The position numbers were made by a program, and so were the translations under genes. The notes under the pieces are model-generated. The model saw nothing but the letters and a program-made list of their open reading frames with translations. It searched no databases and was not told the origin of the DNA. DNA of 63,958 nt, the filler included, from Welwitschia mirabilis (Eukaryota), in assembly GCA_051453625.1 (NCBI GenBank). It is 7 parts of one record of this genome, joined end to end, with 100 filler letters (N's around TTAATTAATTAA, not from the genome) between each part and the next. Parts side by side here need not be neighbours in the genome. Positions count along the whole stretch, not along the records: positions 1 to 19,504 come from JBOZIK010000001.1; 6 more parts are not named here. One strand, given 5' to 3'. Below are positions 62 through 9,245 of the stretch, piece after piece (position 1 is the stretch's first letter; every line of letters begins with the position of its first letter).

Positions 62-322
62 CACTATAAGAAATATAGGCTTTTAAGGCGTTTATAAAAT
101 CACTTAAACCTTTTTAAGGTGTTTACTAACAAAACGCATTAAAAACACTACCTTAGGCTAAGTTTATAGGGCATTTGTATTAAAATGCCTTAAAAGACCA
201 TTTATGGCATTTGCATGATAAAAATATGAAAAGGCTTTTGAGACATTTTATCAAATAAACGCCTTAAAAGTCTAATGCCTTAAATTCCTTTTAAGGCATT
301 GTACCATATAAACGACTTAAAA
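62..322. repeat. CACTA left subterminal repeat array
   Basis: Many copies of TTTTAAGGC(G/A)TTT / AAA(C/T)GCCTTAAAA, direct and inverted. Confidence 0.9.
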
Positions 323-1599
323 ATTCAAAGAGCAACCATACCTACTCAAAACATATTCTAAAGTAAAACTATCATGTTTTTAAAGTTTTAAATGCTCATA
401 TTTTATTATCATATATAAGATTAAAAAAATAAAAAATAAAATACAATCATATAAGATAAAAACTCAACTTTTTATCCTAAAAATGTGAATAAAAAATAAA
501 ATAAACAATTTATTTATGCACATCTCCTTTGTTTGTCTAACATGTTTTCTGAAAACAAACTCTCTTCAGACATGTTTCTAATTAGTCATCACTACATTCT
601 AGGTTTTCCTGACTTTTCCTCCAATATTTCACAATTAAAAAAGAACATGTCTTATGAAATACTTAAAGATAAAACTGTGGATGACCATTTAAAGAAGTTA
701 ATATGTTAGCACCACCATTGCCATGAATAGATGGCTTACTAAGAAATAAATTTTGCAAAATAAAAAATGAGGATGATACTATTTACAAATAAACGACATC
801 TTACTTAACCTTTGCAGAAGATAGATGGTTATTGGTACACATTCAAATACAACATAGGACCAAGAAAAGAAAATATTTTGACCATGTGCTCCTTTTCACA
901 TGACATATCTAGCATAATCTACCAAGAAAATTCCAAAAGAAATGCTTCACACTGTAGACCAGCTAACAAGATAATGAAATGCTAGCCCATATAAAGACTA
1001 TAAACGGATTTTGATTTATTATAAACTTATTCCATGATATAAATTATGCAATCAGATAATATACAAAGACACTGATATAGCTCACACTTCTTCACTTTGT
1101 AATGAAATACTTTATGTAACTAATTTTATAACATGTACTTTTACTGGATTTTACTCTTCTGAGGTAAAAGTTCTTTTCATCTTCCTCAAAGTTCTACATT
1201 AATTACCATATGCTATATAATAGTATACATTTCAGATATTTGTATACCTTCTTAAAGTATGGTCTTCCTATAGTAAGATTATGATACCCATAGATACCTC
1301 TATCTAGTTAGAATACTAACCAATCCTGCTTTGGTATCACCTTAGAATAATTGACAATGTGGTACAATAGGTTTTGTACTTAGGATTATGTGTATGGACA
1401 TTAAGGATAATTGGATAGTATGTAGAGATCTATTGTATGAATATAATTGGATATTGTATAGATATTTGTTTTCAAATAGATAGAAGAATGTTTCTAGAAT
1501 GTGTTAATGAAGAATAACATTATTGTTTTTGGAGGTGATGTGGTAGCTGAATCATTATCTTACAAAAATCAACAATTTTCTAAAAGGTTAACTTCTAAG

Positions 1600-1758
1600 A
1601 TAGTAGTGTCTTCTGTAGTGATGAGATTCCAAGTTATGATACCAAATTTTCCTAATGAATGTAAATTAGATGCTCTTAAGAAAGCCCTATCTTTTTGTGG
1701 AAAAATCTCAAACATTTCAATAAGATAATGCAATTCAACTATTTATATTGACTTTGAG
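1600..1758 (+). pseudogene. Possible captured exon, RRM-like fragment
   Basis: Reads ...IPNFPNECKLDALKKALSFCGKISNISIR*CNSTIYIDFE then GT at 1759. Resembles RRM RNP2/RNP1 spacing; not firmly identified. Confidence 0.3.
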
Positions 1759-1839
1759 GTACAAAACTGCTATTGCATTCTAATTTAATAATCTGATGCT
1801 AAACTTTTGTTCATATGTAACATTAATTATGATATGTAA

Positions 1840-1998
1840 TTTATAGACTGAATAGGCAAAGGATAAGGCCCTTGTAGACCCTTGAATCTCAATGGATGGA
1901 AAGCAACTACAGATCACTACAATAGATCCTCCAAGAACTCCAGCAGTAAGGATATCAAATTTAAACCCAATGACCCCTATTAAAATAATTTTTAGCAT
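1840..1998 (-). pseudogene. Exon-like captured fragment, unidentified
   Basis: Acceptor cttacag| followed by 53 open codons (MLKIILIGVIGFKFDILTAGVLGGSIVVICSCFPSIEIQGSTRALSFAYSVYK). GC is higher than the flanks; the donor is degenerate. Confidence 0.35.
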
Positions 1999-3255
1999 CT
2001 GTAAGTTACTAAGATCTATGAAGAAGGTTAAATGAAGAGATCATAATATTGTGGATGTGCACTTTAAACAATGTGATACAGTTTGCATGTCTAGCATCAT
2101 AAACAAGTATAAATAGTTTAGTTATGAAGGCCTTGCTGCTATGCTCTATGGGCATCAACCACATGATTTTTTATCTTTTTNNNNNNNNNNNNNNNNNNNN
2201 NNNNNNNNNNNNNNNNNNNNNNNNNNNNNNNNNNNNNNNNNNNNNNNNNNNNNNNNNNNNNNNNNNNNNNNNNNNNNNNNATTCTTTCTCAGTCATGTGC
2301 TTGATTAGATTGTTGCCTTACGCTCTCCAGATTACGACATTCGTTGGTCAATTCACCTTATACTAAGCCTAATTGCAATTTCCTATTTATAGCATTGATT
2401 ACTTTTGAAAGTGTAAATTTAGGCCACCAACACTACACCATGTGAGATAGCATCTCACTAGGGTAATTGGTTAAACATATATTAACAAAGAGGAAATTAC
2501 TCATCTCTCATCTTAATGCTATGGGTTTGGATCCTTTGATTCATTAGGAATGGAGCAAAACAGCTTTTCTATCCTATAGTCTCCCATTAGCATATTAAAA
2601 AGCTAGTCTTACACATTAAAATTATTCAAAGTGATGTTTGAAATCACATGGTACTATCAATAGTTGTAGCTGATTGTTGATGATAAATTTTCTTATGCAT
2701 CTGTTTAATGACATGATGTGAAAAATCTACTCTTAATCTTAAATTATTTTATGATATTTATTTTAATCTTCATTGTTGGATATTTTATTTATTCATTAAT
2801 TTCTATCCTATTTTATTAAAGTAATGTGTTTATATTCTATTGGCATTAGTACATCCAACAAAGAATACTGTATTGGATTCTCCTATCATAACTTTCATCT
2901 ACAAATTGGGGATTTTATGAGAAAATTTATCTTTGATTGGTTATCCTCATCAATAGTTTATTTTTTCATTTCTTGGGAGTGCTGGTATTTTTCAAGGATC
3001 ATGGCTAATTGCAAGCATCACTGTAAGCATAAGTGCAAGAATAGCACTTTGCTAGGGATAAAATACTTACTATAGGTTTCTTCAACTATAAGCTATAAGG
3101 ACAACATGAGGTTTTTGAGTAGGTTACTTAGTTTACAAGAAATTAAAACTTTCACAACCTTTCAGAATTGAAAACATGCATATATAATCAAAGTACACTT
3201 TACCCAGAGTAGCATCTAAAGGAGCATATTATTTTGGAATTAAAAATACACATAC

Positions 3256-3602
3256 CTGTTGTTGCATAGATTGTTGTCATTAATCCCTCTAATATGTCAT
3301 ATACCTTGTGGACTACCTGTAGAGTGAAAGAACAAAATATAAGACTAAGATATTGAAGATCCACATTTCATCTAGCAAAAGTTTAAGATCATCTAGTAAG
3401 AAATTGCTAGTCAAAAGAAACTCCATAAGACCTATTCAACTAGAGTTATCAATACATTTGCAAGAGGGACAAGACAATTTGTAGTGCAACTAGCATTCAA
3501 AACAATTATCATTTTAGACTTGGATGCATTCTCATTAACTCTAACCATAAACATAGGATCATCTAATGATGGAGCAGATACAACAAACTTTTTAGCTTCA
3601 CC
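3256..3602 (-). pseudogene. GAPCp: Glyceraldehyde-3-phosphate dehydrogenase (plastid GAPCp-type) fragment: two exons plus intron
   Basis: Exon 3602-3456 (147 bp, AG/GT) [49 protein letters not shown] includes the catalytic NASCTTNCL motif. Exon 3316-3256 (61 bp, AG/GT) VVHKVYDILEGLMTTIYATT matches GAPCp VVHEEFGILEGLMTTVHATT. Confidence 0.92.
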
Positions 3603-7387: not shown

Positions 7388-7474
7388 CTAGTTTATAATG
7401 GCCTACAAATAATTTTGCCCAATGACAAAGTTCATCGAATCCAAGTAATGATGCTCGAACTAATTCACATCAGC
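7388..7474 (-). pseudogene. Exon-like captured fragment (87 bp), unidentified
   Basis: Bounded by tttttag| and |gtttc. One frame reads *CELVRASLLGFDELCHWAKLFVGHYKL. Confidence 0.35.
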
Positions 7475-7691
7475 CTAAAAATAATCATTCATTTCTATAA
7501 AAGTAAAATCAAAGTAACTCTAAACTCTTCAACAAGTAATGTATGTAGATAAATAAACATGATTATACATAATAAGTGTAGTAAGGAATAAATTTAATGA
7601 AACAAGAAAATATCTTTTAAACATTATACTATGGTGAATTTTGTATTAGAAAAAATACCTCTTCTTTTCTAAGCATGACCCAAAAACTTAC

Positions 7692-7864
7692 TAAACTGTG
7701 TAATGTGCAAAACAGGCTTGATCAACTCCTTTGTAAATTATTGGATCTTCTTTATAGCCTAACACTCTGAGACAAGAGCCTCCTCATACGTTAAATTTGT
7801 TTTTCTAGTAACTTCACATATCCATACTCTCTACAGATAAAGATTTATTTGATTTAAATATTCT
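7692..7864 (-). pseudogene. WAC (WSTF/Acf1/Cbp146) domain exon of a DDT/WAC chromatin protein
   Basis: aaatag| EYLNQINLYL*RVWICEVTRKTNLTYEEALVSEC*AIKKIQ*FTKELIKPVLHITQF |gtaagt. Matches the WAC consensus (YRQRVWTCxVTGKxNLTYEEALVSE); three in-frame stops. Confidence 0.9.
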
Positions 7865-8935
7865 CTATTTCAAAGTTAAGATAGAAAACATAGATGTATA
7901 AATTCATGAAAGAAGAATGTAATAGTCTTCCTACAAACTTACATTTAAATTATACTATGAAGATAACTTTGTATGAGAAATAAAATGTATCTCATACAAA
8001 AGCTTAAAATTATATAAATAGACTCCATCTTTTCATGCTTCTAAAGAATTGAAGTTTAAAGATTCTGCTAAGAACTAACACTATAACATGTTGTTAGAAC
8101 ATAATAAAAGTATAGAAATAGTTATAACTAAGGACAAGATATAATAAGCATGTCTTAAAAGGATACTTGTATCTTAAAAAAATTATTTGATAAACCAATT
8201 TTGAAAAAAAGATAGAGATTACTTGTTAATTCCATTTGGTCTGTGTACTTTGTCACTTAAATCCTTCTTGTCAACTTATCTCCTTGATTTCATGCAGTTA
8301 GAGTTTGGACATCAGAGGCCATCAAATTAAGAAAGGGCATCTTCATTTCTCATTTCAACTACCATTGGCTAATAAAACACCAAGAACATGACATAAAACT
8401 TCAACACTAAGAGATTACTATAGGAAAAGGAAAGAAAATAAATTAACTAATATTCGTCTTTTTTAATTGGTAGTAAAGTGGAAAATCTAAGAGGGAAAAG
8501 ATAAGGGCCATAAGCGGTTGAGATTATATCAAGGAAAATAACATAAAAATAATAAAGAAGAAATAGTGAGAAACTTTCCCAAACCATTTTAGCAAGCTTA
8601 GATAATACATAATATTGCAGAAGTTCTTTAAAATACAATTTTGTGTATATTGCATTAGTTGATGATCAACATATAAGAAAGATGATTCTTGCCTTTGGTC
8701 AAATAATCCTTGTGCCTCTCCTTCTGTTTGCTATTAGCATCTTTCAGAAGCTTTACCCACAGAGACAACGAGCCCCTGCACTAGTTTCTCAGTGCCTGTG
8801 AAGGCTCTTTTTTCTTATGAGCTCATAGCCTCTTGATTGCTACCATATGATTATTCTTCTCGTTGTTTCTTGTAGCCCTGCACGTGGTTTTTCTTGAAGT
8901 TAGTGTCCTCCTCGTGGTTCTACTCAATTTCCCGC

Positions 8936-9048
8936 TTGTGCTATGTTTTGGTGCAATTGTTGCCTGCGCTGTGTTTTCATGCTTATGCTATGTTTTTGTG
9001 CAATTGCCGCTTGCGCTATGTTTTCATGCCTGTGCTATGTTTTTGGCT
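8936..9048. repeat. 47-bp tandem repeat (~2.4 copies)
   Basis: Units at 8936, 8983 and 9030: TTGTGCTATGTTTTGGTGCAATTGTTGCCTGCGCTGTGTTTTCATGC. Confidence 0.85.
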
Positions 9049-9079
9049 TTTAGCAACACATGGCTATTTTAATATTATT

Positions 9080-9245
9080 TAGGCTTTGCTTTTAAGGCGT
9101 TTTGCTAGTTAAGTGCCTTAAAAGATCAATCAAAAAAATGCCTTAAAAAGATCACATTACTTTTAAGGCATTTATTTGATTAAAAAGGTTGTAATTAAGG
9201 CATTTGTTTAAATAAATGCCTTAAAAACCTCCATTTCTTATATTA
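9080..9245. repeat. CACTA right subterminal repeat array and degenerate TIR
   Basis: TTTTAAGGCGTTT, TGCCTTAAAAGATCA x2, AAATGCCTTAAAAA, ending ATTTCTTATATTA. Confidence 0.85.

Follow-up and report, generated by a model that had tools for sequence, protein, structure and literature searches.

Multi-gene capture by CACTA elements is already well described, and the kind, structure and likely mechanism of Pack-type CACTA transposons are established in soybean, Arabidopsis, maize and morning glory. Pack-type transposons are one route of exon duplication and recombination in plants and can create small-RNA and methylation conflicts with their donor genes. Here, we analyzed a stretch of DNA from the gnetophyte Welwitschia mirabilis (assembly GCA_051453625.1), called the window throughout (63,958 nucleotides in its full length, filler included), and we concluded that positions 62-9245 are very probably a single copy of a DNA transposon of the CACTA (En/Spm) type, non-autonomous and of the Pack-CACTA kind. 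An earlier reading of the same DNA from its letters alone, hereafter the sequence-only reading, had proposed an element of this kind. The copy is decayed, gives no sign of expression or function and opens no new question. A dissected example is nonetheless useful for the curation of transposable element (TE) libraries and for avoiding false GAPDH, LCB2, WAC and RRM gene models.

The comparisons below draw on parts of the cited papers. Tgm-Express1 from soybean (Zabala & Vodkin; PMC1947982) is, like the element here, a non-autonomous CACTA transposon with inverted-repeat ends that carries exon and intron pieces of unrelated genes, five of them in 5.7 kb compared with four in 9.2 kb here. In addition to the host, soybean rather than a gnetophyte, two properties set it apart. 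Tgm-Express1 is a recent insertion in intron 2 of F3H, whereas the Welwitschia copy is decayed and lies in repeat-rich DNA; moreover, its fragments are spliced into chimeric transcripts, whereas here no RNA read was at least 99% alike. Pack-CACTA1a and Pack-CACTA2a from Arabidopsis (Catoni et al. 2019; PMC6379663) share with the element here the CACTA-derived termini, the lack of a transposase, an interior of chromosomal DNA from several loci and, putatively, the 3-bp type of target-site duplication (TSD). Members of the family have termini in common while differing inside. The Arabidopsis Pack-CACTAs start CACTACAA, compared with CACTATAA here, a difference of one letter in eight. Their TSDs are intact, and movement was observed in epigenetic recombinant inbred lines (epiRILs; PMC6379663), whereas the TSD of the element here is imperfect.

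Among the maize and rice Pack-CACTAs found with packFinder (Gisby & Catoni 2022; PMC8903248), the interior is less repeated than the termini, and the same is true here. In maize, Pack-CACTAs carry the most distinct loci, and longer elements carry more of them. packFinder demands conserved TSDs and cluster membership (PMC8903248); the present copy would probably fail its TSD and terminal-CACTA filters. A 2026 paper on Platycladus (PMC13477047) reported that in gymnosperms, among them W. mirabilis, every major TE superfamily has captured exons, described the capture as ancient and found two or more fragments in 13.68% of host TEs on average. That paper is a statistical survey by BLASTN overlap, and in the parts of it covered no single Pack-CACTA is dissected with its ends, TSD and fragments. 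In gymnosperms, such elements are known mostly from bulk statistics, whereas the ends, related empty sites, four donors and signs of spread after capture are described here for one locus. A full-text literature search for the 12-mer terminus returned no plant paper, and a search on Welwitschia and CACTA gave nothing on Welwitschia transposons among the matches listed (titles and abstract starts), most of which appear to arise through the word 'Cactaceae'. The features of the element and its borders are as follows.

62-9245: CACTA-type element, whole, 9.2 kb
59-61: putative TSD, left copy TTG, read directly
62-102, plus strand: left terminal inverted repeat, starting CACTATAAGAAAT
76-330: left subterminal repeat region, TTTTAAGGC/GCCTTAAAA in both orientations
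1480-2579, plus strand: 3' part of a gene for an RRM protein (exon blocks at about 1480-1757, 1849-2106 and 2433-2576, then a TAG stop)
2181-2280: assembly gap, 100 N
3256-3602, minus strand: GAPDH fragment (exon 3456-3602, GT..AG intron 3317-3455, exon 3256-3316, intron flanks on both sides)
5159-5266, minus strand: piece of one late coding exon of LCB2 (serine palmitoyltransferase subunit 2)
6454-7127: assembly gap, 674 N
7687-7866, minus strand: WAC-domain exon (PF10537 positions 17-76 of 101, E 1.4e-16)
8928-9043: G+C-richer tandem repeats of 22-47 nt, inside the right end
9074-9232: right subterminal repeat region, with the motif in five exact copies and both orientations
9205-9245, minus strand: right terminal inverted repeat, degenerate tip TAATATAAGAAAT
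9246-9248: putative TSD, right copy TTA, read directly

Paired CACTA-type ends with subterminal arrays had been claimed from the sequence alone, and our counts bear this out. The element terminus is CACTATAAG; the left tip at 62-74 begins CACTA, and its inverted partner lies at 9233-9245. The 13-mer of the tip is by itself at chance level (seven matches with at most two mismatches, compared with 6.46 expected), but the 25-nt pattern TATAAGAAATNNAGGNTTTTAAGGC is confined in the window to 65-89 on the plus strand and 9218-9242 on the minus strand, two matches where 0.00 were expected. A repeat search likewise paired both ends through a 38-nt inverted repeat that is 82% complementary. The window holds 14 copies of the 9-mer TTTTAAGGC or its complement, compared with 0.96 expected, and this count was reached in none of 100 shuffles. 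Four of the TTTTAAGGC/GCCTTAAAA places fall in 81-297, five in 9090-9226 and five near 32 kb, with none elsewhere in the window; at both ends of the element the copies sit on both strands, and hairpin pairs were detected there.

The copies near 32 kb, five exact TTTTAAGGC motifs at 31786-32076, adjoin a second CACTA-type end at 31700-32124, in which CACTACATGAATTATAAG occupies 32107-32124 on the minus strand and starts CACTAC at 32124. No partner of this end was found in the called bases, and an 838-N gap lies at 29881-30718. Since the arrays also occur at this second end, the motif marks CACTA-type ends in this genome.

The borders of the element were located with sequencing runs. Logan contigs of three DNA runs (X1 and X8 under one species label, X5 under another) and the raw reads of one RNA run (X17) were aligned to positions 1-9777 at a likeness of at least 85%. 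Just before base 62, 103 (X1), 133 (X5) and 89 (X8) contigs have loose ends, and their left flanks are unlike one another (agreement 0.39-0.40); breaks at base 62 into unlike flanks are characteristic of a transposon terminus that recurs at many sites. In each of the three DNA runs, other contigs join one flank directly to the other, from 43 to 9246, 44 to 9246, 18 to 9246, 38 to 9255 and 44 to 9255. The letters between the joint sides resemble window positions 19-57 and then pass straight into the TTAGT... that follows base 9245, with the contigs reading ...GTATGTT and then directly TTAGT.... We read these flank-joining contigs as uninterrupted copies of a host repeat, that is, as related (paralogous, diverged) empty sites. 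They place the right border between 9245 and 9246, and they locate the left border to about four bases around the step from 61 to 62. Therefore, both ends belong to one insertion of an abundant family, and joints in three runs argue against the possibility that they derive from different insertions, which the sequence-only reading had named as a way to overturn it.

The repetition of the family is most evident at its termini. Summed contig depth, which is not equal to copy number, in bins 1-326 and 9129-9454 was 5007 and 4295 in X1, 13886 and 11658 in X5, and 6489 and 5956 in X8, whereas near-identical single pieces had a depth of 2-8 (2-3 in X1), an approximately thousand-fold contrast with the terminal bins. 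Pieces at least 99% alike numbered 921, 834 and 930 in the three DNA runs and were present under both species labels. Within the window, self-BLAST revealed no second copy of the flanks or the interior, save 9522-9777 against 11092-11338 (82%). This match belongs to a very high-copy right flank (9455-9777, summed depth 37229-85712), whose 82%-identical copy lies 1.6 kb on. The element thus sits within repeat-rich DNA.

An improbable but the best surviving alternative is that the two ends come from different insertions, for example from two truncated short CACTA derivatives, or were brought together by a scaffold misjoin, in which case 62-9245 would not be one mobile unit. The short joints 95 to 9195, 95 to 9201, 95 to 9203 and 88 to 9207 suggest that very short derivatives with both ends exist, which would explain the huge terminal depth; the two interior gaps, the degenerate right tip and the imperfect TSD are compatible with it as well. 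However, the flank-to-flank joints of all three runs omit exactly the segment from 45/62 to 9245, neither host-repeat sequence nor an extra motif cluster is present inside the element, and the ends face each other in proper orientation with subterminal regions that differ from each other.

Several observations weigh against our own reading of 62-9245 as one Pack-CACTA copy. The right tip reads TAATA in place of CACTA, with two of five letters changed. The near-TSD had been reported as TTG/TTA, and the letters are as claimed; nevertheless, they agree at only two of three positions, which is weak in DNA so AT-rich, and the related empty-site contigs have TTA once at the junction, the left flank here being one base longer. 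That flank is only 61 bases long, and the support for the joints is short, with shorter sides of 22-31 letters at 85% likeness. The interior is broken by the 100-N and 674-N gaps, and its continuity depends on scaffolding. What is said of the run alignments draws on the rows listed, which comprise 40 of 2283 differences, 15 of 299 joints and 24 of 2568 loose ends, and the depths quoted above do not count copies. A metagenome scan with the terminus pattern returned 0 loci, and no CACTA transposase was found elsewhere in the window among 114 open reading frames (ORFs) of at least 52 amino acids (aa), five of which had Pfam matches.

In the element itself, the sequence-only reading had seen no recognisable transposase in the called bases, and neither did we. 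None was found among the 218 stop-to-stop ORFs of at least 22 aa in 1-9600 (Pfam, E<=0.05), of which four had matches, to RRM_1 (E 0.0074), WAC (1.7e-6), DUF1087 (0.019) and AP5B1_N (0.0089). Six read-through frames with X at stops also gave none, the only match being WAC (E 1.9e-14). It is quite improbable that the element is instead a decayed autonomous CACTA, whose transposase lies in the gaps or has mutated past recognition and whose host fragments are secondary. Such an origin would be in keeping with the size of autonomous CACTAs, which are similar to this element or larger, with the 774 uncalled bases in gaps of estimated size, and with the heavy decay of the genome by transitions. Yet the WAC and RRM pieces, equally decayed, are still recognized (E 1e-16 and 6e-26) where all ORFs and read-through frames failed to yield a transposase family, and the called interior is mostly explained by host fragments and anonymous DNA.

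Two of the Pfam matches were rejected as gene fragments. The AP5B1_N match at 8851-9069 and the DUF1087 match (CHD-type remodellers) at 8658-8780 on the minus strand were both judged to be chance among 218 ORFs. The DUF1087 match does lie upstream of the WAC exon on the same strand and could be a fifth, very decayed fragment.

We then compared the interior with host genes. The claim of exons from at least three unrelated host genes held for GAPDH, LCB2 and WAC, with introns, and the interior carries pieces of four genes. The overlooked one, the RRM piece, is a larger fragment, the 3' third of its gene and about 1.1 kb long, part of which is concealed by the gap at 2181-2280. Of 1.84 billion proteins, 34 matched a read-through of 1886-2113 at E<=0.001. 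The best of them, P0004 (E 5.6e-26, 75% identity), is a W. mirabilis transcript in EukProt of 761 aa with two RRM_1 stretches, and P0008, which is related more distantly, is named in Quillaja as an RNA-binding (RRM/RBD/RNP motifs) family protein; these two identities indicate that the donor was an ordinary plant gene. When P0004 was used as a tblastn query, aa 494-594 aligned at 1480-1770, about 590-676 at about 1850-2104 and 714-761 at 2433-2576, with 63-73% identity and at least eight in-frame stops. The same search found no other parts of P0004 in the window, aa 1-493 being missing. GT..AG introns are kept in the piece. At 2102, RNA reads have a loose end (13 reads, agreement 0.99) whose hand reading, S-S-L-N-G-V-I-V-D-Q, equals P0004 residues 676-685. 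The RRM exon gave only a chance match in the PDB (E 0.67), and the ESM Atlas returned no usable match for 1498-1725.

The bin 2283-2608, which overlaps the last RRM exon (2433-2576), has a summed contig depth of 17012 (X1), 55401 (X5) and 26242 (X8), far above its neighbours. Either the 3' end of the donor gene is repeat-derived, or a high-copy element adjoins the 100-N gap.

The WAC exon has three in-frame stops in 60 codons, and together the RRM and WAC pieces contain at least 11. Pfam on single ORFs missed GAPDH and LCB2 because their exons are short; a PDB sequence search detected both. For 3435-3602, 128 GAPDH sequences were matched (best E 2e-15), with Arabidopsis GAPC1 aligning over residues 114-164 at E 5e-15 and chloroplast GAPA at about 1e-7. 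The best PDB matches are cytosolic-type GAPDHs, and no GAPCp chain is named among the 60 matches listed. With three GAPDHs from JGI and ENA records as tblastn queries, a second exon was detected at 3254-3322 (aa 163-184), and nothing convincing appeared elsewhere in the window. The splice signals are kept, namely, a GTATGT donor after exon 3256-3316 and a ..CATAG acceptor before it. In the RNA run, 185 reads are spliced from 3317 to 3457, and 243 reads at 3256 and 48 at 3604 leave the element for sequence that is absent here; hand-translated, that sequence reads like neighbouring GAPDH exons.

The LCB2 piece matches residues 424-459 of the 489 of Arabidopsis LCB2a (E 1.4e-7), as well as human SPTLC2, and keeps its upstream acceptor ..TTATAG. 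Sixteen RNA reads exit it at 5159, in mid-exon, where the parental mRNA continues differently. Position 5159 is a capture or deletion breakpoint inside the LCB2 exon. No more LCB2 exons were found in 5264-6453, where three minus-strand read-through frames gave 0, 0 and 8 PDB matches; the eight (E 0.12-0.98) are all unrelated viral envelope chains at chance level. A search for longer homologous proteins from the LCB2 and WAC pieces found none. Thus, the GAPDH and WAC exons of the sequence-only reading stand, with GAPCp as a putative subtype, while its LCB2 exons reduce to one exon piece. As for remaining exons outside the terminal inverted repeats, none of GAPDH or the RRM gene were found elsewhere in the window, and LCB2 was searched for only at 5264-6453.

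That the gene pieces are left over from adjacent genes of an ancestral block, or are ordinary pseudogenes lying between transposon ends by chance, is very improbable despite three of the four fragments sharing one strand, because each gene is represented by only one to three exons with broken ends (LCB2 being cut mid-exon at 5159), GAPDH lacks anything outside aa 114-184 and the RRM gene lacks aa 1-493, and the whole segment, whose interior is largely multi-copy, is missing from related copies of the surrounding repeat.

The fragments point to capture at the DNA level, since GT..AG introns and intron flanks are kept; breakpoints lie inside both exons and introns. RNA reads that are 85-95% alike continue into exons absent from the element at 2102, 3256, 3604 and 5159, which indicates that expressed parents exist for the RRM gene, GAPDH and LCB2. 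In the one RNA run, 752 reads were aligned, none at 99% or more, 8 at 95-99%, 204 at 90-95% and 540 below 90%. Because no read is at least 99% alike, the parent genes are the source of the reads on the fragments; the count says nothing firm about the element's own transcription, and silence is not thereby demonstrated. The sequence-only reading had gone further and proposed that the element shuffles exons. In a functional sense this is not supported, given the stops of the RRM and WAC pieces, the degenerate right terminus and the 0 of 752 reads at 99% likeness.

Overall, we provide a putative mechanism for the origin of 62-9245 as a Pack-CACTA element. The element retains only the cis parts that transposition requires, namely, the terminal inverted repeats and the subterminal arrays of a short motif in both orientations. 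By analogy with En/Spm and with described Pack-CACTAs, transposase proteins of a related autonomous element would bind the ends and subterminal motifs in trans, and the bound element would then be excised and reinserted with duplication of 3 bp of the target, as in En/Spm. The host DNA between the ends was copied at the DNA level with introns kept, the RRM piece on the plus strand and the GAPDH, LCB2 and WAC pieces on the minus strand. Capture itself may have proceeded through re-mobilisation of neighbouring insertions after complementary terminal deletions, a route presented in parts of earlier work (Catoni et al. 2019, PMC6379663; PMC8903248; PMC13317346), or through repair-template switching.

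The copies of the family provide information on the order of events. At sites in 593-3040, 5914-6344 and 8069-8337, contigs with other letters number 2-11 in X1 and up to 17 in X5 in the rows listed, whereas at four listed sites in 3749-5158 there are only 0-4. Likewise, bin depth in X1 is 6-9 in 3587-5542, compared with 24-72 in the non-terminal bins on either side (a range that excludes the high-copy bin 2283-2608 and the gap bins 6521-7172). Large parts of the interior exist in approximately ten or more diverged copies, from which it follows that some captures at least came before the spread of the element. Much of the interior, the RRM and WAC parts included, appears to have multiplied together with the element. 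The GAPDH-LCB2 block has a low copy number and contains no stops, which is suggestive only: the block could have been acquired later, or its additional matches could simply be the parent genes.

We tentatively raise a stepwise growth of this Pack-CACTA family in a gnetophyte whose genome is extremely poor in G+C, a scenario that we consider possible but rather doubtful. If so, an older RRM/WAC core, present in about ten or more diverged copies and riddled with stops, would have been followed by a low-copy block of about 2.3 kb (3261-5542), gained later by one sub-lineage with its GAPDH and LCB2 pieces without stops. Were this true, the family would offer a dated natural series of successive captures, and the element would be the first anatomically described Pack-CACTA of a gymnosperm.

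Transitions dominate the differences among copies. In X1, A>G was counted 223 times, C>T 263, G>A 234 and T>C 216, compared with 22-65 for each transversion. The G+C content of the window is 19-36% in 2-kb steps, and a published value for Welwitschia is 29.07% (in the part covered of PMC8275611). These two features agree with an origin in Welwitschia or a near relative, as do the P0004 match and the RNA reading at 2102; however, the many gaps of the window are at odds with the contiguity that was reported for the published assembly. Together with the stops, the imperfect TSD and the mutated right tip, a divergence of 10-15% from other copies suggests that this copy has lost the ability to move; it looks old and is probably immobile.

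Two further observations concern the interior. The longest open frame in the element, 131 aa at 3961-4353 on the minus strand, is unusual in DNA so AT-rich; it has no Pfam match and no usable ESM Atlas match, and RNA depth is 0 in bins 3913-4564. At 6098-6419, there is a tandem duplication with a unit of about 160 nt (158 nt at 75-79% identity), which ends 34 bases before the 674-N gap.

The remainder of the window appears to consist of decayed repeats and to lack intact genes. The Pfam matches of its 5 ORFs out of 114 are retrotransposon gag or weak chance matches, and gag remnants lie at 16513-16764 on the plus strand (Retrotran_gag_2, E 3.1e-22), 20631-21020 on the minus strand and 53231-53470 on the plus strand (Retrotrans_gag, E 2.4e-5 and 0.0058). 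The window contains 37 runs of N. Among these are six pairs of 44-N runs separated by 12 called bases, such as 19505-19548 and 19561-19604, a pattern that looks like an assembly or masking artefact.

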